Part shown: piece after piece, positions 2,669 to 54,817 of the stretch | Numbering within the stretch: position 1 is the stretch's first letter | Layout: each line of letters begins with the position of its first letter | Origin: a bacterium | GTDB taxonomy: Bacteria; Patescibacteriota; Minisyncoccia; Phycocordibacterales; UBA918 | Assembly (NCBI GenBank): GCA_043719295.1 | Contig: JAYSUD010000005.1 | Coordinates: 31,651-95,650 of the forward strand | Reading direction: 5' to 3' | DNA: 64,000 nucleotides | The notes under the pieces: model-generated | The model's database searches: none | What the model was told of the DNA's origin: nothing | Seen by the model: only the letters and a program-made list of their open reading frames with translations | Made by a program: the position numbers and the translations under genes

Positions 2669-2829
2669 GTGAACAGAATATATACAACAAACCCTACAAG
2701 TAACATTGTCGGGTTTTTGTTTTAAAGTCATAAAAAAACATGTTTCCAGACTACTTGCTCGTTGGATTTTTATTGAAAAGATATTGCGATATCTTTGGAT
2801 ATATTCCTCTGTGGTCACGAGTTACTAAC

Positions 2830-3006
2830 TATAATTGTTCGCTCCGCTCCAATTCTAGTAAGTACTCTCGACCCCGACTCGACTGTTTTCTCCTCTGGGG
2901 AGCAGGAGAAAACATGTCTCCGTCCATCACATCGACCCGTAAGTGACGCAGGTCACTTACTAGAACAGAAAGCACCCCTTCTTAAGAAGGGGTGCTTTCT
3001 GTTCTG
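2830..3006 (+). ncRNA. candidate small RNA (paralog A): TATAAT promoter, conserved 5' leader, covarying hairpin, terminator
   Basis: TATAAT at 2830-2835; GTTCGCTCCGCTCCAATTC leader; hairpin GTTTTCTCCT/AGGAGAAAAC masks an SD followed by ATG at 2914; second hairpin gtaagtgac/gtcacttac; long palindromic terminator 2963-3006; paralog at 32805-32975. Confidence 0.5.
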
Positions 3007-3121
3007 TCGATGTGAGCCTTCAGCTGATAGAACTCATCAAGTTTATTGTCCCGCAACGTTATTTTTTACTAAGTAACGAGAAATATTGACGACCCTTCTC
3101 GTGCCTCTGTTGCTAAATAAA

Positions 3122-3601
3122 TTAGCTGATTTCTTTAATACTAATACATATACCAAACTCGTCAGTGGTTCCTTCAATTGAGACGTCATATGATTCAGTG
3201 TAATCAATTCTTATGGGTGTATGTGACCAAATATCAATAAGAATTTCGTTTATTTTTTTCTGTATCCTTTCATCTAAAGGATAAAAGTTAGAAATACCTT
3301 CATCTCCCAGCAGAGTCTTAAGTTGGTTATGAAAGTCTGTGAATGAACCGTTAAACATGACGGTATTTCCAAAACCTGCATGAAACTTTTTTAATTCATC
3401 AGTAATAATTTTTGGTGCCTTTGAAATTTTTGTATGTAAAGTTAAATTACAGTAGAAGTTTAAGATACTATATTTTTCGGGATGGTTTCTTAATTCAAGG
3501 ATTTTCCTGACCCTTGAAAGTATATAAACAATATCTTCTTCAGTTACAGGAATGGACTTAAGTTTTTCGAGTAATTTATCTTTTATTTCTTTTTCACCCA
3601 T
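3122..3601 (-). CDS. hypothetical protein
   Basis: 159-aa ORF; its promoter region carries the GTGACA-N4-GTGACA direct repeat (3622-3638). Confidence 0.5.
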   Translation of the reverse strand: MGEKEIKDKLLEKLKSIPVTEEDIVYILSRVRKILELRNHPEKYSILNFYCNLTLHTKISKAPKIITDELKKFHAGFGNTVMFNGSFTDFHNQLKTLLGDEGISNFYPLDERIQKKINEILIDIWSHTPIRIDYTESYDVSIEGTTDEFGICISIKEIS

Positions 3602-8114: not shown

Positions 8115-8453
8115 AATTAATGCTTGATAGGACTTAATAATTCGTGGCGGATATACAAAAAGCCCGCCACGGGTAGAGGGCGAACCCTCTCGTACCAGTT
8201 TCCCGATACGGCCTATCAAGCAACCCCATGACGGGTTTTTTATGCTTGATAGGACTTTTCACCATGCTCCAGATATTCTCTGAAGTTTAGGCTACTTCTA
8301 AATATTCGATTCTACGAGAACAATAATAGCAGATTTTACTGCCTATTTCACTCTATCGCATGTTTGTTCTTTTGCTAAGGCTCAAACACGAGTATGTGAT
8401 GAATATGAAGTTCTGCATAGACTATGCATCATAAATGGTTCTGTCATTAATTA

Positions 8454-13961: not shown

Positions 13962-14069
13962 GCAGTTAAGCTAAGAGTATCACTAATTCAAATAGGTTGA
14001 AATACATACCTAATACAAAAATAACCTCAAATGAGGCTATTTTTGTATGCTTCTCGTGCTAGCACGAAT

Positions 14070-14143
14070 TGGTGATCCCACGGAGAATCGAACTCCGATT
14101 TCCAGGATGAAAACCTGATGTCCTAACCGTTAGACGATGGGAC
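14070..14143 (-). tRNA. tRNA-Glu (UUC), CCA encoded
   Basis: cloverleaf GGTCCCA...anticodon loop TTTTCAT...TGGGATCACCA read on the minus strand. Confidence 0.85.
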
Positions 14144-14256
14144 CAAACGTTATGTATAACGCGAGCAAAATCATACCAAAAAACACAGAAAAAGCTAGTC
14201 TTGTACACAAAAGGGCAATCTCGGAAGATTGCCCCCTATCACCGTTTTACTTGCTC

Positions 14257-22806: not shown

Positions 22807-22879
22807 GCGCGATTAGCTCAGCTGGTAGAGCGCCCGCATGACATGCGGTAGGTCACAGGTTCAAGTCCTGTATCGCGCA
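22807..22879 (+). tRNA. tRNA-Val (GAC)
   Basis: GCGCGAT acceptor, GCTCAGCTGGTAGAGC D-arm, anticodon loop ATGACAT, TTCAAGT T-loop. Confidence 0.85.
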
Positions 22880-23126
22880 CTTAGAAAATAAATAACTCAG
22901 TGTGTATACACTGAGTTATTTATTTTCTGCGCGATACAGGACTTGAAAGGCGGAGTCGGGGACCCTTTGGGCCGACGAGCCGGGGTCGAGAACACTTAGT
23001 AGATTTGGAGTCGAAGACGAACAAATATACTTAATGATTCGTGACCGAGCCCTGTATCAAATGCCTTAACTCGTACAGCACGCAAAAAAAAGATGACCAT
23101 GCTTTGTTTACTGTATACTATCTTCA

Positions 23127-24198: not shown

Positions 24199-25374
24199 AT
24201 GAAAATCCTTTCAATTGAAACTTCTGCAGATGAGACAGCAGTAAGTATTGTAGAAGCTACAGGCGACTTTCCTTTAGCTACTTACGAGATTCTCGGCAAT
24301 GCGCTTCACTCACAAATTGAACTCCATACCCAATACGGAGGGATTTTTCCAATGATGGCTAAACGTGAACATGCAAAAGCCATTGTTCCTCTGCTACAAA
24401 ATGCACTTGAAGAAGCCGACATGCTCTCAAGTTCGAGGTCTAACCTCGAACAAGGGCTAGTTGAGAAATTACATGAGTTACTTTTGCAGGAACCTGAACT
24501 TGCTCAAACTTTTATTTCTTTTTTAGAATCACACGACATTAAAGATGGAATTGACTGTATTGCAGTTACGTCAGGACCTGGACTAGAGCCGGCGTTATGG
24601 GTAGGGGTTAATTTTGCTAAAGCTTTGAGTCTTGTCCTTAACGTCCCCGTTGTTCCTATTAACCATATGGAGGGACACATGCTTGCGTCACTTTATGACG
24701 TAGTACAAGACGACGCTATTGCGGAAGTTCACTTCCCTGCTTTGGCACTTCTTATCTCGGGCGGACACACAGAACTAGTTCTCATCAAAAAATGGGGTAT
24801 GTATGAAAAAGTTGGACAAACAAAAGACGACGCGGTTGGAGAAGCATTTGATAAAGTTGCACGTATGATGGGACTTCCCTATCCCGGAGGTCCTGAAATT
24901 GGCAAACGTGCAAAGATTGCTCGAGAACAAAAGCTACCTTTATTTAAAAACGAACTACCTCGACCAATGCTTCACTCTAAGGATTTAGATTTTTCTTTTT
25001 CTGGACTTAAAACTGCTGTACGCTATGCAATTGACGGAAGAGAATTATCAGAAAATGAAAAGAATGCACTTTCACGAGATTTTGAAGATGCGGTAACCGA
25101 AGTACTTTTAAAGAAAACACAAACTGCTCTGTCAGAGTTTGGTGCACAAACACTTATTGTTGGAGGTGGCGTTAGCGCGAGTGCGCGTATCCGTGAAGTG
25201 TTCCAAACAGAACTCCTCCACTCACACCCCGATATTGAAGTCTATTTCCCGCAACCAAAACTTTCAACTGACAACAGCATCATGATTGCACTCGCGGGCC
25301 ATGCTCATGTCACGGAAGGCAGAACAGCAGGAGCAGTGAGCTTGATTAAAGCCGATGGGAATCGATCGTTGTAA
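24199..25374 (+). CDS. tsaD: tRNA N6-adenosine threonylcarbamoyltransferase
   Basis: MKILSIETSADETAVSIV N-terminus, Kae1/Gcp family His motifs, 391 aa with an insertion. Confidence 0.85.
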   Translation: MKILSIETSADETAVSIVEATGDFPLATYEILGNALHSQIELHTQYGGIFPMMAKREHAKAIVPLLQNALEEADMLSSSRSNLEQGLVEKLHELLLQEPELAQTFISFLESHDIKDGIDCIAVTSGPGLEPALWVGVNFAKALSLVLNVPVVPINHMEGHMLASLYDVVQDDAIAEVHFPALALLISGGHTELVLIKKWGMYEKVGQTKDDAVGEAFDKVARMMGLPYPGGPEIGKRAKIAREQKLPLFKNELPRPMLHSKDLDFSFSGLKTAVRYAIDGRELSENEKNALSRDFEDAVTEVLLKKTQTALSEFGAQTLIVGGGVSASARIREVFQTELLHSHPDIEVYFPQPKLSTDNSIMIALAGHAHVTEGRTAGAVSLIKADGNRSL

Positions 25375-25431
25375 AACTATTTAAAATACTGAGTAGGTGT
25401 TATATACTACAAATATCGAAAGGAGGTAGAA

Positions 25432-25566
25432 ATGGCAATACGATATTGTGAATGCGGTCGTGAAATTCGTGTTTATATCCATGGTAACTGGGGACCTGCT
25501 CCAGATGAAAATCATGATTTATGCCAAAAGTGTTGGCAGTCGCAATTGGACTCAGATCGCACATGA
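25432..25566 (+). CDS. small zinc-ribbon protein (44 aa, not in ORF track)
   Basis: strong SD (gaaaggaggtagaaATG); MAIRYCECGREIRVYIHGNWGPAPDENHDLCQKCWQSQLDSDRT with CxC...CxxC. Confidence 0.45.
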   Translation: MAIRYCECGREIRVYIHGNWGPAPDENHDLCQKCWQSQLDSDRT

Positions 25567-25711
25567 CCCACGGATTGGCTTACAATCTAGTGGGTCAATT
25601 CGTGTTTATGAATTTATTATTTTACCCCAGAGATTCTTCACCAACGTCATTTTTCATGATACTATCGCTTTATTACGTGCCCCGTTAGAAGCACTGCACA
25701 AATACAATAAT

Positions 25712-27931
25712 ATGTCAGAAATCAATAATAAAATACAAAATAAGGTTGCTTCTGATGGGGTGAACGAAGAAAAAAGCATGATCCCGGAAGTATTTTTGAC
25801 ACCATACGACCCAAATAAACACGAGAAGGCAATATACGAGCTTTGGGAAAAAACAGGGTTTTTTAATCCAGACAACCTCCCTCCCCATCAGGATGGAATG
25901 CCTCGTACAGAGCCTTTTTCTATAGTCATGCCTCCTCCAAACGCCAATGGTTCGCTTCATGCGGGACATGCGTTGTTTGTAACCATCCAAGACATCATGA
26001 TTCGCTACAAGCGAATGCAGGGATTTAAAACAGTTTGGATACCGGGTGCTGACCATGCAGGGTTTGAGACACAAACGGTGTACGAAAAGAAACTTGAAAA
26101 GGAAGGGCGTTCCCGTTTTGGGATGGATCCTAAAGAACTGTACGCGGAAATCATGGCCTTTACTATGGCGAGTAAATCGTTCATGGAAAACCAAATCAAA
26201 GAACTTGGTGCATCGTGTGACTGGAGTCGACTCCTCTTTACACTCGATGACAGGGTTATCAAAACCGTTTACGACACTTTTAAGCAACTCGAAACCGACA
26301 AACTCCTCTATCGCGGTGCACGTATTGTGAACTGGTGTTCAAAACATCAAACTTCCCTTTCAAATCTTGAAACTAACCACGAAGAACGAGTAAGTAAATT
26401 TTACTATTTTCAATACGGACCATTTGTTATTGGGACAGCCCGTCCTGAAACGAAATTCGGTGACAAGTACGTGGTAGTACACCCAAACGACGCAAAGTAT
26501 GCAGAATTCACCCATGGACAACAAATTGAACTTGAGTGGATTAATGGACCGATTACTGCAACGGTGATTAAAGACGAAGCAAGTGATCCTGAAATGGGAT
26601 CAGGTGCCATGACTATCACTCCCTGGCACTCGGGAGTTGACTTTGACATTGCAAAACGACATAACCTACCCTACGAGCAGATAATTTCCTGGCAAGGAAA
26701 ACTTCTCCCTATTGCAGGAGAGTTTGAAGGAATGACTATTAAAGATGCACGCGAGAAGATTGTTGAAAAACTTAAGGAGAAAGGATTGCTGGTAAAGATT
26801 GATGAAGCGTACGCACACGCAGTTCCTTGTTGCTATAAGTGTGACCGCGAGATTGAACCACAAATTCGTGAACAGTGGTTTGTAAAGACAAAACCGCTTG
26901 CAGAGAAAGCACTTGAAGCAGTAGACGCACAGAAGATATCATTCTCAACCGACCGCGATGAACGAGTTTTCCGCGACTGGATGGAAAAGATTGAAGATTG
27001 GAATATCTCACGCCAAATTATTTGGGGAATCCCTATTCCTGCAAAAGTTTGTACGCAGTGCGGGAGTGGAATGGTTGATATTGAAAATACGGTCACTACA
27101 TGTACCGCATGTGGGGGCACAGCACTCATACAAGATCCTGATACCTTTGATACGTGGTTTAGTAGTGGTCAGTGGCCGCTAGCAACCACAGGGTATCCGG
27201 ACAACGAGGATTTCAAAACCTACTACCCTACTTCAGTCATGGAAACAGGAAAAGATATTATTTTTTTCTGGGTATCGCGCATGATTATGCTCGGGCTCTA
27301 TAGAACTGGCGAAGTACCATTTAAAAAAGTCTATTTGCACGGCATGGTGCGCGACAAACACGGCAAGAAGATGAGTAAGAGCAAAGGTAACGTTATTGCA
27401 CCAAGTGAGATACAAGAAAAGTATGGCACTGATGCACTTCGCATGGGACTTATGGTCAACAACGCACCCGGAACTGACATGAATCTCGACCCTGACAAGG
27501 TTAATGCGTACAAAAAATTTGCAAACAAACTTTGGAATATTACACGGTTTGTTCTTGATAATACGCAAGACTATGTGCCACCAGTAGAGCACACCGAAGC
27601 TGACACTGCTTTCGAAAATGAATTTCTGCATCCAATGGTTGCCGAGATTAACAAATTTATGGAAGCTGACCGATACGACTTGGCTTCAGAAAAAATTTAT
27701 CATTTCGTATGGGATCATTTTGCGAGTCAGGTGATTGAGGAATCAAAACCACTTTTAGCTGAAGGTGGAAGCGTTCGAGCTTCACGACAAAGAATGCTTG
27801 TGCACTATTTAGTGACGTCTGTTAAGCTCCTCCACCCATTCATGCCGTTTATCACCGAAACCATCTGGCAGGAACTTCCAAAGCAAATGAAGGATGCAGA
27901 TATATTAATTGTCGCAACGTGGCCAAAATAG
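25712..27931 (+). CDS. valS: valine--tRNA ligase
   Basis: HAGHALF (HIGH) and KMSKS motifs and editing domain; the track ORF start at 25448 is an upstream over-extension in frame, real Met near 25712. Confidence 0.85.
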   Translation: MSEINNKIQNKVASDGVNEEKSMIPEVFLTPYDPNKHEKAIYELWEKTGFFNPDNLPPHQDGMPRTEPFSIVMPPPNANGSLHAGHALFVTIQDIMIRYKRMQGFKTVWIPGADHAGFETQTVYEKKLEKEGRSRFGMDPKELYAEIMAFTMASKSFMENQIKELGASCDWSRLLFTLDDRVIKTVYDTFKQLETDKLLYRGARIVNWCSKHQTSLSNLETNHEERVSKFYYFQYGPFVIGTARPETKFGDKYVVVHPNDAKYAEFTHGQQIELEWINGPITATVIKDEASDPEMGSGAMTITPWHSGVDFDIAKRHNLPYEQIISWQGKLLPIAGEFEGMTIKDAREKIVEKLKEKGLLVKIDEAYAHAVPCCYKCDREIEPQIREQWFVKTKPLAEKALEAVDAQKISFSTDRDERVFRDWMEKIEDWNISRQIIWGIPIPAKVCTQCGSGMVDIENTVTTCTACGGTALIQDPDTFDTWFSSGQWPLATTGYPDNEDFKTYYPTSVMETGKDIIFFWVSRMIMLGLYRTGEVPFKKVYLHGMVRDKHGKKMSKSKGNVIAPSEIQEKYGTDALRMGLMVNNAPGTDMNLDPDKVNAYKKFANKLWNITRFVLDNTQDYVPPVEHTEADTAFENEFLHPMVAEINKFMEADRYDLASEKIYHFVWDHFASQVIEESKPLLAEGGSVRASRQRMLVHYLVTSVKLLHPFMPFITETIWQELPKQMKDADILIVATWPK

Positions 27932-28000
27932 TTAGTATTGTTATTCAGACTAAGACTTGATATAGTCTTTTGTTAGAAACAGCGCTCGGAAGGAATACGC

Positions 28001-28255
28001 ATGAGCTTAGTATTTGCACAGAGAAAATCCCTCAACGGAGAACCCGGAGCACACCTGGTGGATGTTGACATCTTCAAGCCGAACGGAAAAACAAAAATAC
28101 TCCGTGCACAACTTTTCATTGCCTTTGATGAGGCTAAAATAGAAGGGATTGTCCTTGGAGGATGCACAAACGGCTTGGAGTTATTCTCAGATGGAACAGA
28201 AGTTACAATGAGGCCTATTGAACGAGATGGCTACACGCACATGCTGTGTGCCTGA
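28001..28255 (+). CDS. hypothetical small protein
   Basis: 84-aa ORF with a GGAAGGA SD 7 nt upstream. Confidence 0.35.
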   Translation: MSLVFAQRKSLNGEPGAHLVDVDIFKPNGKTKILRAQLFIAFDEAKIEGIVLGGCTNGLELFSDGTEVTMRPIERDGYTHMLCA

Positions 28256-28480
28256 AGTTCTGCATCATGCACAAATCCACCCTTGGACACCACCCGGTGT
28301 CCATTTGCTTTTATACGCAACAACATATAATTCTAAACACATCCTCTGCTACAATAGGACTGATAGAAATGAACATAATTCGAGGCGAACAAGGAAATTT
28401 TTAAGAGCCCTACTTGCTGTAGGGTGAAGAAAAATTTTTGCAGTTCAACAAAGAAGTATGCCATTTCTATCAGTCCTATT

Positions 28481-29188
28481 ATGGAGTCGACATACTTTGC
28501 TATCGCATTCCTAGGCGGCCTCATCCCCGCGCTTTTTTGGTTGTGGTTTTGGCTTCGTGAAGACAAAGAACGTCCAGAACCCTATCTTCTCATTGCGCTC
28601 GCATTCATTGGCGGAATGATGGTAGTCCCCCTTGCACTTCCCTTACAAAAACTTGCTATTGATACCTATACGGGAGACAACCTCGTTGCTATTTGGGTCA
28701 TCATTGAAGAAGTACTCAAATATGCAATTGCACTTATTATGATCTTATGGAATAGAGCAGTTGATGAACCTATTGATGTAATCATCTACATGGTCACCAT
28801 TGCGCTCGGGTTTGCTGCACTTGAAAATACGTTATACATCTTTAATCCAATTACCAACGGAGATTTTGCAAATGCTGGAGTAACTGGTTTCTTCCGATTT
28901 TTAGGATCGACATTGCTTCACGTACTTGCGTCGGGTACTGTGGGAGCGTTCTTGGCACTGGCATTTTTTAAGTCTTCGCTTCAAAAACTAATTTGGGGAA
29001 GCATTGGGTTGTTCGTTGCTATTGTATTGCATGCATTGTTTAACTTTTTTATAATGGATGGAAGTGGAGAGACAATTGTTGGCGTGTTTCTCTTCGTCTG
29101 GATGGGCATTATCGTCTTGTTTCTTATCTTTGAAAAAGTTAAAATTCTTGAAGCCCGTCATAACGCACCTTTACAAAAAACATCATGA
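28481..29188 (+). CDS. PrsW-family intramembrane metalloprotease
   Basis: multi-TM; EEVLKYA, FAALEN and HALFN motifs of the PrsW/YhfC family. Confidence 0.65.
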   Translation: MESTYFAIAFLGGLIPALFWLWFWLREDKERPEPYLLIALAFIGGMMVVPLALPLQKLAIDTYTGDNLVAIWVIIEEVLKYAIALIMILWNRAVDEPIDVIIYMVTIALGFAALENTLYIFNPITNGDFANAGVTGFFRFLGSTLLHVLASGTVGAFLALAFFKSSLQKLIWGSIGLFVAIVLHALFNFFIMDGSGETIVGVFLFVWMGIIVLFLIFEKVKILEARHNAPLQKTS

Positions 29189-29706
29189 AAAAACCATCAT
29201 TTTTAGAACGACTCACTGGATCAGTTGCCACCTCTAAGTACGACGACGTTCTTGATGGTGATCACGAATTTGGTGCAGACGATAAAACAGAACAAGACGA
29301 CAACTATCAAGACGAATCAGCATGGCACGGCCAAGGCGGGATGGATGATGACGAACCTCAAGAAGGTGAACTTCCTGTAGACATGTATCAAACTGGAGAT
29401 GCGGTTATTATTCGTGCGCTTGTTGCTGGAGTGTCTCCTGACGATTTAGACATTGCTATTACTCGTGACATGGTTACTATTCGTGGTTCACGAGAGGAAT
29501 ACAAAGAGGCATCAAATGAGGACTATTATCATAGAGAACTGTTCTGGGGTTCTTTCTCACGAACACTTGTACTCCCTGAAGAAGTAGTCATTGATGAAGC
29601 CGAGGCTCAAGAAAAACACGGTATGCTCGAGATACGTTTACCTAAAGTTGATAAAGGACGAAGTGCCCGCTTAAAAGTAAAGCCACATCACTTGAACGCT
29701 AAATAG
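29185..29706 (+). CDS. Hsp20/alpha-crystallin small heat-shock protein
   Basis: alpha-crystallin domain with an acidic N-terminal extension; start overlaps the prsW stop. Confidence 0.7.
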   Translation: MKKPSFLERLTGSVATSKYDDVLDGDHEFGADDKTEQDDNYQDESAWHGQGGMDDDEPQEGELPVDMYQTGDAVIIRALVAGVSPDDLDIAITRDMVTIRGSREEYKEASNEDYYHRELFWGSFSRTLVLPEEVVIDEAEAQEKHGMLEIRLPKVDKGRSARLKVKPHHLNAK

Positions 29707-31046: not shown

Positions 31047-31432
31047 GTATGTATATTATGTCATATTTATTGATTTTGAATATGCTTCACAACCTGACAT
31101 GAAAACGAGGATGTCTTGCTTTCTAAACGAAAAATACTCCAATCGATTGGAGTATTTTTGCTGACGTATTGCGTGATAAGAGTCGGACTTGGTCGCTAGT
31201 TGTGACAACGAACATTAATTCAGGAGCCAGACTTGCACACGAATCACTAAGTATATTATTTCGCTACGCTCATAATCTACTAAGTGTTCGCGACCCCGTC
31301 TCACTCGTCTTGGCATTAGGAAAAGCCAAGACATCGTTGCGACCTTCAAGTCTGGACGCAAGGTGCGCAGGCACCTTACTCTCTGAGCACCACATATACA
31401 AAAACCGCTCCTGAGAGCGGTTTTTGTATATG

Positions 31433-31509
31433 TGGTGCTCAGAGCCAGACTTGAACCGGCGACCCTTCCCTCTTCAGGGGAATGCTCTACCAACTGAGCT
31501 ATCTGAGCA
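31433..31509 (-). tRNA. tRNA-Phe (GAA), CCA encoded
   Basis: GCTCAGATAGCTCAGTTGGTAGAGC...anticodon loop CTGAAGA...TTCAAGT...TCTGAGCACCA on the minus strand; track ORFs 31215-31535 and 31169-31414 are artefacts of this tRNA. Confidence 0.85.
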
Positions 31510-31739
31510 TATGGTATGACTCTCCGCTTATTCAAAAAAGCTAAGTGAGCTGTGACATTGTACCTGTTTTTATCTTTTTTTCAACACACTCTATAAGGCT
31601 TATGAAAATGAGTGAGAAGTGATAGGGAATCACTTCGCAAGAGGTTACCTGCTCTTTTGAAAAAAAGAGCGATAACCTGAACAGTTTCTGTAAGAAACAA
31701 AAGAGGAAACGAAGAAGTGTGCCATTTTCATAAGCCTTA

Positions 31740-32115: not shown

Positions 32116-32781
32116 ATGAAAAAAGATGCAAAACAAATTATTGTCGACTTTCTTGAGCTTCAGAAAAACTACCAGTTTACGCGACGATCGACAATGACCA
32201 AAGAGCGTTTTTGCGATATAGGATTAAAAAATAAAGAATTTGGATTGGATACTACTGACGATAGACTAAAAGAAACATTACTTGAACATGTGGGACATTT
32301 ACCAGTACTTGCAACCTCCCTCTATGAGTATGCCGAAAATGCAGAGAAAATTAATCTTGGCCGAGTTCTCATTATGCTTTCTATCCATGATATTGGAGAA
32401 ACAAAATTAGGTGACGTATTTGCATACACAAAAACACAAAGAGAGGAATCAGACGAGCTCGACACTGCAAAGAAAATGCTTTCCCCACAGCTCATTACTT
32501 ATCTAGAAGAGTACGAAGCAAACGAAACATTCGATGCAAAGTATGCAAAATCAATAGACATTCTTGCACCTTTAATGCATGCAGTTGATTTTATTGGATA
32601 TACCCACGCTCGCTTTTTAAAGTTTGGTGGTACTAACGAAAAAATAATCACAAGAAACCGTCCTCTATTGCTCTGGGATAGTACGTTATTAGAAATATTT
32701 GATTTGATTCTAGAGCAATCAGCCCGATATGAAAAATGCGAACCGTTATTATTCCCCACTGTTGATTATGATTTGAAGTAA
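32116..32781 (+). CDS. HD-domain phosphohydrolase (YfbR-like paralog)
   Basis: HVGHLP...SIHDIGE HD motifs. Confidence 0.65.
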   Translation: MKKDAKQIIVDFLELQKNYQFTRRSTMTKERFCDIGLKNKEFGLDTTDDRLKETLLEHVGHLPVLATSLYEYAENAEKINLGRVLIMLSIHDIGETKLGDVFAYTKTQREESDELDTAKKMLSPQLITYLEEYEANETFDAKYAKSIDILAPLMHAVDFIGYTHARFLKFGGTNEKIITRNRPLLLWDSTLLEIFDLILEQSARYEKCEPLLFPTVDYDLK

Positions 32782-32804
32782 CTGGTTGGGGTCAAGTTTC
32801 TAGC

Positions 32805-32975
32805 TATAATTGTTCGCTTCGCTCCAATTCAAGCAACAACTTCCTCCCCGGACTCACCTGTTTCTGCACTAGGAAGAGCAGAAACATGGCTCCGTCTCAC
32901 ATACAGGCACGAAAGCAAAGCAGTTTGCTTTCTAAACGAAAAATCCACCATTCTTAAGAATGGTGGATTTTTCTT
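32805..32975 (+). ncRNA. candidate small RNA (paralog B of 2830-3006)
   Basis: TATAAT 32805-32810; GTTCGCTTCGCTCCAATTC leader; covarying hairpin GTTTCTGC/GCAGAAAC; CATGGCTCCGTC; hairpin gaaagca/tgctttc; terminator aaaaatccaccattcttaagaatggtggattttt. Confidence 0.5.
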
Positions 32976-32985
32976 TACCTATATG

Positions 32986-33057
32986 TGCCCTCGCTAGGAG
33001 TCGAACCTAGATCCCCTCGTTAGGAGTGAGGAGTTCTATCCATTGAACTACGAAGGC
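32986..33057 (-). tRNA. tRNA-Arg (CCU)
   Basis: GCCTTCG acceptor (one G.U), anticodon loop CTCCTAA, T-arm CTAGG-TTCGACT-CCTAG, minus strand. Confidence 0.75.
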
Positions 33058-33120
33058 AAAGTGGTTCTAGGGTAGCATATATAGTTAAGATAAAATATAG
33101 CTCATACTGCCACCTCGTAC

Positions 33121-54336: not shown

Positions 54337-54746
54337 AGGAGCTTTCTCATCAATACGTACGTTTATAAAAAAGGAGAAATAAAGTTATAAGCAACTACAA
54401 GCACAACAAGAAAAATCACTCCAATGCATATTTTTTTAATCATACCTATATGGTAACTGAAGTAAGTCTGGATATCTAGCTAACAAACAAGCAATCGTTC
54501 TTGATTGTCCCTGTGTACCGAACTGTGCGTATCTACAGCTTGTAACTGAAGAAGCACCCCTAAGTGTGTTTTTTCTCGAGCTGGGATACAGGGAATTTCT
54601 CTTGTTACACAAGCAGTATAGGTTGTCGCTCTTTTTCCAAAAGAGCTGGCAACCTTTCCGAATCCGCGCGACGCTTTTTTAAAAAAGCTGCGCCTGTATC
54701 CCAGCTCACAGCAAAAAACACCCTCATGGGTGTTTTTTGTTGTGAG

Positions 54747-54817
54747 CTGGGATACAGGGATTCGGACCCCGATTAATGGCTTCAAAGGCCACTGTCCTAC
54801 CATTAGACGATATCCCA
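54747..54817 (-). tRNA. tRNA-Gln (UUG)
   Basis: TGGGATA acceptor, anticodon loop CTTTGAA, TCCGAAT T-loop, TATCCCA-G; aligns with E. coli tRNA-Gln; track ORFs 54480-54818 and 54564-54776 are artefacts. Confidence 0.8.

Follow-up and report, generated by a model that had tools for sequence, protein, structure and literature searches.

Integrative elements that target transfer RNA (tRNA) genes, among them phages, integrative and conjugative elements (ICEs) and genomic islands with tyrosine integrases, have their boundary in the T-loop or at the acceptor end of the tRNA gene, supply a replacement tRNA 3' end, leave the displaced end as a direct repeat and, upon repeated insertion, build tandem arrays. 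Those bounded in the T-loop reportedly form a sublocation class of their own, distinguished by Williams in 2002. Here we analyze a family of short DNA units that resemble such elements in all these respects, found in a stretch of 64,000 nt (positions 31,651 to 95,650 of contig JAYSUD010000005.1, assembly GCA_043719295.1; hereafter the window) from a member of the Patescibacteria, whose genomes are among the smallest and most streamlined in bacteria. Two of the units, copy A (around 2830-3006) and copy B (around 32805-32975), had been singled out in a reading of the letters alone (the sequence-only reading) as paralogous, stand-alone, promoter-to-terminator units of a candidate small RNA (sRNA) family. 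We find that both copies do belong to a paralogous family of conserved, structured and non-coding units with real covariation, that the family is linked to tRNA genes and that its members bear the marks of insertion. Our preferred reading, to which we assign a probability of about 0.5, is that A and B are structure-dependent insertion modules of about 150-230 bp, free of open reading frames (ORFs) and specific to Patescibacteria.

Copies A and B are related, with 81% column identity in their alignment. As the sequence-only reading had noticed, both carry TATAAT followed by TTCGCTYCGCTCCAATTC (2830-2855 and 32805-32830; two matches in the window versus none in 100 shuffles) and the CATGKCTCCGTC block, and both contain a hairpin whose stems are unlike yet complementary (2885-2913 in A, 32860-32884 in B), followed by one more hairpin and by a long GC-rich stem-loop carrying a U tract; the folding z-scores are -7.8 for A and -7.5 for B. 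The next gene is indeed on the opposite strand in each case, an ORF at 3122-3601 for A and tRNA-Arg(CCT) at 32985-33057 for B. The parts of the two copies, with the covariance model of the first hairpin designated R1, are the following.

2811-2876, plus strand: copy A, match to R1 (91.1 bits).
2813-2873, plus strand: copy A, hairpin P1, with 5' arm 2813-2837 (TATAAT at 2830-2835), 12-nt loop TTCGCTCCGCTC at 2838-2849 and 3' arm 2850-2873.
2876-2924, plus strand: copy A, hairpin P2 in the minimum free energy fold, with basal helix GAC/GTC, internal loop TC/TCC and second helix GAC/GTC.
2886-2912, plus strand: copy A, variable apical hairpin of P2; the ATG of the sequence-only reading lies at 2914-2916.
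2927-2936, plus strand: copy A, segment X (TCACATCGAC), read from the sequence as complementary to 3006-3015 (GTCGATGTGA) beyond the terminator.
2939-2960, plus strand: copy A, hairpin H3, with a 9-bp stem and a GCAG loop.
2962-3005, both strands: copy A, terminator-like hairpin T, a perfect 20-bp palindrome with loop TTAA, followed by the X-complement at 3006-3015.
32786-32851, plus strand: copy B, match to R1 (71.4 bits).
32788-32848, plus strand: copy B, hairpin P1, with loop TTCGCTTCGCTC at 32813-32824, starting 5 nt past the stop codon of the ORF 32116-32781.
32850-32897, plus strand: copy B, hairpin P2 with a covarying apical hairpin.
32898-32907, plus strand: copy B, segment X (CACATACAGG).
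32911-32932, plus strand: copy B, hairpin H3 with a GCAG loop.
32938-32973, both strands: copy B, bidirectional terminator T.
32978-32987, plus strand: copy B, X-complement (CCTATATGTG), overlapping the 3' end of tRNA-Arg.

Copy A is not next to a tRNA gene and sits behind a protein gene; its X segment is laid out as in the tRNA-linked copies. The stand-alone position claimed for both units is doubtful for B, which directly follows a same-strand ORF. The stems of the two terminator hairpins differ and their central 10 nt (TTCTTAAGAA) are shared (2979-2988 and 32951-32960).

The sequence-only reading let the unit begin at TATAAT, which it does not, and took this hexamer for its promoter, a role that the analysis did not support. 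A listing of the loci showed that the 17 nt before TATAAT change together with the sequence after the conserved block. A scan with the pattern TANAATNNTTCGCTNCGCTCCAA, limited to one genome per species, gave 57 loci, and the P1 alignment from which R1 derives comprises 49 sequences. Across these homologues 2813-2829 pair with 2857-2873 with compensatory changes, so that the hexamer lies inside a covarying helix. P1 is a 23-bp hairpin with the 12-nt block TTCGCTNCGCTC at its apex; 84.9% of the alignment cells are paired and 16 of the 23 pairs show compensatory changes on both sides, while none of 500 shuffles reached any of these measures and slid controls were 23-40% paired. TATAAT itself pairs with ATTCTA in the helix, and in a divergent copy at locus L036 these pairs change compensatorily to AATC/GATT. 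A sigma-70 consensus scan detected no promoter and no -35 element at A or B.

A coding role found no support. Between A and B, similarity had been described as kept up by way of indels and not in frame; in fact no gap interrupts the alignment between the ATG and the end of the second hairpin, and the difference between the 10-aa and the 23-aa ORF comes down to a stop codon, TGA in A versus CAA in B. The accompanying claim that no peptide is conserved is borne out, because no more than 17 of 61 family members have CATG, most others having CATC: neither the start codon nor the frame of a small-protein gene is conserved among the copies. The supposed ATG consists of a conserved "AU" and the first base of a covarying helix.

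Covariation of this kind might also arise in duplex DNA, if P1 were a palindrome bound by protein (a Xer-type or other recombinase site, or a regulator site) whose symmetric half-sites change together without any folding. P1 is indeed long and imperfectly palindromic, its inner arms (ACTWASTAKAAT) are similar to the XerC-side arm in the Firmicutes dif site (the Bacillus subtilis dif sequence is confirmed in PMC3025954), and the arms of the terminator hairpin are Watson-Crick paired in 481 of 499 pairs. However, the half-site pattern occurs at chance frequency in the window (8 found versus 5.9 expected), no full dif-like site was found with up to 3 mismatches allowed, and the arms, 16-18 bp apart, are spaced too widely for a recombinase core site (the centre of the 28-bp Xer/dif site has 6-8 bp); a Xer/dif site was rejected on these three counts. 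Moreover, copies within one genome differ in their arms yet stay complementary, which a single DNA-binding protein would not tolerate, and conserved bulges and mismatches together with strand-biased wobble pairs point to a folded single strand. We consider a duplex binding site highly improbable.

Past P1 comes P2, and as a rule H3 and the terminator hairpin come after these two. In P2, the central basal pair covaries (AT 11, TA 2, GC 18, CG 13) and the apical hairpin varies in length and sequence. The H3 hairpin with its GCAG loop is present in 27 of 66 copies, 18 of which have the 9-bp stem (shuffles give 1.2), with 14 different inner stem sequences. The terminator hairpin is a near-perfect palindrome with U tracts on both strands; long and GC-rich, it stands at the 3' end and is terminator-like in both directions. 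In addition, a closing stem (S0) of at least 8 nt of complementarity between the P1 flank and a stretch about 3 nt past P2 was detected in 21 of 60 copies, against 4.5% in controls; some of these copies have no tRNA link and lie behind protein genes. The sequence of S0 is specific to each locus, one strand being a direct and the other an inverted copy of the 3' end of the neighbouring gene. From this complementarity, S0 is predicted to close P1 and P2 into a three-way junction.

Some members are larger, with extra conserved domains between P1 and P2, namely the hairpin GAATC-TTACA-GATTC and the blocks CTCTTGCG and TCTCACCC (L025:1-330, L057:5890-6125, L011:1500-1680, L043:3268-3500 and L022:5520-5700), which suggests a modular superfamily with optional peripheral domains. 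At L016:5505-5560 a second hairpin with the same GTTCGCTACGCTC loop sits inside one element, an arrangement in which this loop motif would act as a portable module.

The link to tRNA genes emerges from the genomic context of the copies. A tRNA gene lies at most 420 nt downstream in 35 of 66 copies, on the opposite strand every time; the element is also found at the 3' ends of some protein genes. tRNA genes were called with ARAGORN and the Rfam tRNA model, and ARAGORN reports the adjacent tRNAs as intact. Two kinds of copy of the tRNA 3' end accompany the element. Between P2 and the terminator lies a segment that repeats, in inverted orientation, the tRNA 3' end together with its trailer. A direct repeat of the tRNA 3' end, scoring at least 9 and up to 25 nt long within the span tested, accompanies 14 of 34 tRNA-linked copies (control 0.8%); in nearly all of the 14 it abuts P1, and it mostly begins at T-loop position 55/56, with tRNA-Lys copies beginning near the acceptor end. 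The direct and the inverted copies pair with each other. The units present two features of an integrative element: a junction in the 3' part of the tRNA gene with a regenerated end and, at the far boundary, the displaced end as a direct repeat.

Several loci show signs of insertion and turnover. In L036, three units of different P1 subtypes stand in tandem before one tRNA-Ala gene; every unit has a terminator, and ahead of the innermost one 19 nt of the tRNA 3' end are copied. L014 contains two tandem copies that are identical over the 230 nt compared. The tRNA-Cys site of L014 is filled, and a direct repeat runs there without mismatch from C56 for at least 51 nt; L037, which is syntenic, has no element at this site. 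All available relatives have elements at their tRNA-Phe and tRNA-Gln sites.

The window itself was found to hold more than the two copies that the sequence-only reading had counted. It contains four canonical copies (A, B, C and D) and a variant, E, and four of its five tRNA genes carry an element downstream, as listed here.

32985-33057, minus strand: tRNA-Arg(CCT), convergent with copy B; called by ARAGORN and by the Rfam tRNA model (61 bits).
31224-31444, plus strand: copy C, at tRNA-Phe; supported by repeat families D1, I1 and I4 and the direct-repeat test.
31224-31235, plus strand: copy C, direct repeat of the antisense of the tRNA-Phe T-arm (GAGCCAGACTTG).
31233-31298, plus strand: copy C, P1 with R1 match (75.9 bits) and loop at 31260-31271.
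about 31345-31357 and 31358-31379, plus strand: copy C, X1 and H3, both following P2.
31381-31410 with 31415-31444, plus strand: copy C, perfect 30-bp inverted repeat covering the acceptor 3' strand of tRNA-Phe and its CCA.
31433-31508, minus strand: tRNA-Phe(GAA), convergent with copy C; called by ARAGORN and Rfam.
31100-31215, plus strand: remains of an older element at tRNA-Phe, now decayed (repeat families D1 and I2).
22807-22880, plus strand: tRNA-Val(GAC), convergent with copy D; called by ARAGORN and Rfam.
22881-23062, minus strand: copy D, with a terminator (22883-22929), P2 and, at about 22930-22950, the tRNA-Val 3' end as an inverted copy.
22981-23048, minus strand: copy D, P1 with R1 match (68.2 bits) and loop variant TTCGTCTTCGACTC.
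about 23049-23062, minus strand: copy D, degenerate direct repeat.
about 54575-54745, plus strand: variant E, adjoining tRNA-Gln, with another internal module in place of P1 and P2.
54746-54817, minus strand: tRNA-Gln, neighbour of variant E.
14070-14144, minus strand: tRNA-Glu, with encoded CCA, the only tRNA gene of the window without an element.

In the decayed unit we recognize the 3' half of H3 and the terminator (31118-31159, with a 20-nt identity to copy B), a degenerate copy of the tRNA-Phe T-arm and 3' end (31180-31194) and a P1-like remnant. Variant E keeps the flank logic of the other copies, with the tRNA 3' end repeated directly on its 5' side (GCTGGGATACAGGGAATTTC) and once more, inverted and interrupted by a hairpin, in its interior (CCGAATCC...CTGTATCCCAGC); its internal module (GGTTGTCGC...GCTGGCAACC) is also an extra domain of the larger elements in L025 and L043, and the orthologous tRNA-Gln site in L022 bears an element as well. 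Downstream of tRNA-Glu (14040-14069) there is a small hairpin, TCGTGC-TA-GCACGA, with an ordinary terminator and no 3'-end palindrome, and since this tRNA gene has no element, the inverted copy is to be assigned to the element. The convergent tRNA genes, the direct and inverted copies of tRNA 3' ends, the tandem arrays and the remnants had no place in the description given by the sequence-only reading.

Three other accounts of the tRNA-like segments were tried and rejected. A primer-binding site for mature tRNA does not agree with the tRNA-Arg of the window, where CCA is not encoded and the segment pairs with the genomic trailer, which places the complementarity at the level of DNA or of the precursor. 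A pseudo-tRNA paralogue is incompatible with copy C, whose segment is the exact complement of the T-stem 3' strand and T-loop, with A opposite U62 where the tRNA has G52. A group I intron was set aside because no Rfam intron model matched and a paper on tRNA introns in Patescibacteria contains nothing alike (PMC13011429). Three loci (L003, L029 and L045) share a small conserved protein gene downstream of the element and convergent with it, ending in ...RRKPGRLMGGKR*, and the inverted copy spans the last codons of that gene and its stop codon.

No integrase is encoded within the element, which at about 200 bp has no ORF, and no recombinase-like ORF recurs within the 8-kb loci. This was assessed by all-against-all clustering of 975 ORFs from about 50 such loci, in which no recurrent family of recombinases, reverse transcriptases (RTs) or HUH enzymes was obtained, and an autonomous partner nearby was therefore rejected.

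The direction of the unit was then weighed by comparing the two strands. The tRNA-sense strand, opposite to that of the sequence-only reading, folds better in 57 of 58 copies, with a mean for P1 plus P2 of -48.2 versus -39.6 kcal/mol. P1 has 54 wobble pairs on the tRNA-sense strand versus 21 on the other, and H3 has 8 versus 2. The terminator also has 8 versus 4; a strand call from these pairs was rejected as uninformative, the arms being almost wholly Watson-Crick. The tRNA-sense strand is the probable folding strand. On it, the invariant P1 loop reads GA-GCGNAGC-GAA, where N takes all four bases; in all pattern-selected copies this strand, the reverse of the plus-strand loop, is GAGCGNAGCGAA, and variant copies keep the CGAAG apex. 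GCGNAGC is a published motif known as a mini-hairpin; it has a GNA triloop, is of extraordinary stability in DNA and of lesser stability in RNA, and occurs in single-strand initiation signals and in the hairpin promoters of phage N4 (PMC13037366). The predicted P1 apex has this motif, with a free N, and a centre base that varies freely would fit the flipped-out base of a triloop better than an antisense seed.

These results bear directly on the proposal that the plus strand encodes an independent, trans-acting sRNA, which would start at TATAAT, end at the terminator and pair through C/U-rich unpaired stretches (UUCGCUNCGCUCC, CCCC, CUCC) with the Shine-Dalgarno regions of its targets. Of this proposal, the terminator and the covarying hairpins stand. 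The hexamer TATAAT is present in most copies, including the extra ones found by the covariance model without the pattern, and is TATATT in copies C and D; a terminator-like hairpin follows 140-170 nt downstream; and C and D have no same-strand gene upstream, so that a plus-strand RNA would need its own promoter there. We also count in favour of an sRNA the C-rich unpaired motifs, which we take to resemble seeds of the RsaE/RoxS and LhrC type. Against it, P1 has its 5' arm upstream of where transcription would begin, and yet this arm covaries with the transcribed one, the -35 element is missing and the promoter scan negative at both sites, the opposite strand is the better folder, the centre base of the "seed" varies freely and Rfam offers no match. 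The direct and inverted copies of tRNA 3' ends, the T-loop junction and the tandem arrays would be left unexplained. A trans-acting sRNA is, in our judgement, quite unlikely.

Next, we consider the distribution of the family. About 50 of the 57 pattern loci are in metagenome-assembled genomes (MAGs) of Patescibacteria (the candidate phyla radiation, CPR), labelled Paceibacteria, Kaiserbacteria, Nomurabacteria, Parcubacteria, Wolfebacteria and Saccharibacteria; the pattern matches outside Patescibacteria have no P1. A covariance-model search of related loci, which the sequence-only reading had proposed as a check, was carried out with R1 and found further copies, often in tandem. The Rfam scan that it had also proposed shows that no known family, signal recognition particle (SRP) RNA and 6S included, accounts for the copies: Rfam 15 at gathering threshold gave only LOOT and five tRNAs over the whole window, scans by E-value of 2700-3100 and 32700-33100 gave only sub-threshold, terminator-driven matches, and 16 Patescibacteria loci gave tRNAs only. 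On this basis SRP RNA, 6S, RsaE, LhrC, group I introns and ribozymes were rejected. The LOOT RNA motif (RF03000), an orphan structured RNA of unknown function, has a full-length match in the window at 8175-8293 on the minus strand (89.6 bits versus a gathering threshold of 46.4). We found no description of the element in the literature searched for precedent, and the family is apparently undescribed.

Four IMG/VR viral contigs (L060, L061, L065 and L069) share a short hairpin, CTTAGCAAATTG-TTCGCTTCGCTC-CAATTTGTAAGAG (for example L061:2810-2870); viral carriers were rejected, as these contigs hold the same apex but no other part of the element (the P1 model scores 36 bits). A phage origin of the window was likewise rejected, because a phage collection gave no match to it and its flanking genes (for LepA, an EamA transporter, a VIT1 family protein and HD-domain proteins) are ordinary chromosomal ones. 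Loci L022, L027 and L028 are syntenic with the window and encode proteins 72-86% identical to its own, which identifies the window as part of a Patescibacteria genome. L027 and L028, labelled Candidatus Saccharibacteria and Candidatus Paceibacteria, have proteins about 60-80% identical to those of window 24199-29703 and represent the same syntenic locus. At least one of these NCBI phylum-level labels is unreliable, since both loci match the window and yet are labelled differently, and labels of this type were not relied on for claims of breadth. The exact flanking proteins of the window are on record elsewhere only in one Logan assembly (SRR23617205; L001 and L002), whose contigs stop 154-170 nt past the ORFs, within copies A and B; short-read assemblies appear to be broken by the element, as is typical of repeats.

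How might such a unit move? According to our preferred reading, that of an ORF-less insertion module, it would have T-loop position 55/56, or a point close to the acceptor end, as its site of entry into a tRNA gene, or else arrive at the 3' end of another gene, bringing a new tRNA 3' end and a terminator and pushing the old 3' end downstream. The tRNA-sense strand would fold and be recognized, as single-stranded DNA (ssDNA) or as RNA, and a hypothetical trans-acting enzyme encoded elsewhere in the genome would move the unit. A small circular intermediate made of the 3'-end copy, the terminator, the inverted copy, P2 and P1, with three hairpin arms, would give the observed junctions. A bolder version takes the unit for the integrated form of a viroid-like replicon or transposition intermediate, a three-armed circle of about 200 nt in RNA or ssDNA, in which a hairpin arm mimicking the target duplex (tRNA T-arm and acceptor end) directs insertion at T-loop 55/56 by base-pairing or structural mimicry, with no element-encoded protein. 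This version is tentative and on present evidence unlikely; if true, it would define a new class of protein-free, target-mimicking mobile element in Patescibacteria.

Several observations weigh against the insertion module. The tRNA-sense strand is G-rich, which may inflate the strand test, so that the strand call is probable rather than proven; 35 of the 54 P1 wobbles are at one conserved position, and P2 is without strand bias. The comparison of filled and empty sites has n=1. No recombinase, RT or HUH gene recurs near the elements in the approximately 50 loci, and the proposed enzyme is hypothetical. In L036, the different P1 subtypes at one tRNA gene all have arms matching that tRNA, which makes a simple cut-and-paste or integrase model insufficient without target-templated copying or gene conversion. 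Finally, elements stand at the tRNA-Phe and tRNA-Gln loci alike in genomes with a protein identity of no more than 72-86%, and this shared occupancy is equally compatible with long vertical retention of a useful module.

Retention is the core of another explanation, in which the tRNA strand carries a cis-acting RNA module that extends tRNA transcription units, and some mRNAs, by a structured 3' part. The module would be kept by vertical descent and spread mainly by local duplication; its antisense segment would pair with the tRNA 3' end or with the downstream repeat, and the module would act in termination, 3'-end processing, stability or quality control. This would account for an element that is always downstream of, and on the same strand as, the gene in its better-folding orientation, for its presence at four of the five tRNA genes of the window and for its recurrence at tRNA-Phe and tRNA-Gln in related genomes. 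It would also agree with a segment whose pairing with the tRNA 3' end tracks each genome's own tRNA, and with the retention of about 200 bp per tRNA gene in streamlined genomes. However, the tRNA is separated from the module by a strong terminator-like hairpin, and a terminated tRNA transcript would therefore not contain it. Tandem arrays of unlike subtypes, decayed remnants and the filled versus empty site point to turnover by insertion, the tRNA-Glu of the window does without an element, and copy B would read antisense into a protein gene. We regard a cis-acting module as possible, if unlikely.

Whichever reading applies, about 200 bp of conserved, folded and non-coding DNA is placed behind most tRNA genes of the window despite the streamlining of these genomes, and recurs in many genera. 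If mobile, it would be a protein-free element that finds the tRNA T-loop and rebuilds 3' ends, raising the question of which host enzyme recognizes the folded strand with its target copy, and it could be of interest for programmable insertion. If cis-acting, it would add a new layer to tRNA 3'-end biology in organisms without many standard RNA-processing enzymes. In either case the elements create spurious ORFs in MAG annotation and seem to break short-read assemblies, and a covariance model would improve both.

Set beside described systems, the element differs from the tRNA-targeting integrative elements in having a folded, covarying three-way junction and an inverted copy of the target, in lacking an integrase or any ORF at a size of about 200 bp, and in occurring also at the 3' ends of protein genes. 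MITEs, the miniature inverted-repeat transposable elements (Correia, RUP), and the repetitive extragenic palindromes and their mosaics (REP/BIME) are, like it, small, non-coding, multi-copy and structured, are found in 3' intergenic positions, are often tied to terminators and break short-read assemblies. Unlike these, the element has neither terminal inverted repeats, its ends not being mutual inverted repeats, nor a short target-site duplication of fixed length; its repeats of 9 to at least 51 nt are copied from the 3' end of a gene, its placement is site-specific by tRNA structure, and the conservation of its sequence extends over many genera instead of stopping at one species.

Sites that act as folded single strands (integron attC, CTX-phi attP(+), the ends of IS200/IS605, G4/ssiA priming hairpins and N4 promoters) have in common with it strand-biased folding, conserved structure with variable stems and conserved unpaired bases, including a GCGNAGC or CGAAG apex as in ssDNA initiation signals (PMC13037366). 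The likeness to integron attC was assessed at the level of strand-biased folding in general, and CTX-phi offers a hairpin that mimics a duplex target; no integrase, HUH enzyme or primase was identified in association with our element. The C-rich sRNAs of Gram-positive bacteria (RsaE/RoxS, LhrC) are similar in their length of 100-170 nt, several hairpins, intrinsic terminator, C-rich unpaired motifs and paralogous copies, and dissimilar in that no covariance model matches the element, its putative promoter is in a helix, its other strand folds better and its anatomy is tied to tRNA. Retron msr-msd regions resemble it by a closing stem of inverted repeats and by short hairpins plus one long hairpin over about 170-200 nt; here, by contrast, there is no adjacent or recurrent RT, nor any recurrent ORF family adjoining the elements in about 50 loci, the copies are many per genome and the closing stem is copied from the neighbouring gene. 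The element thus departs in at least one defining feature from the tRNA-targeting elements, from REP/MITE and from the attC/CTX-phi/ssi sites alike. We rate it as a small, non-autonomous, site-specific insertion element, with something categorically new as a minority possibility.

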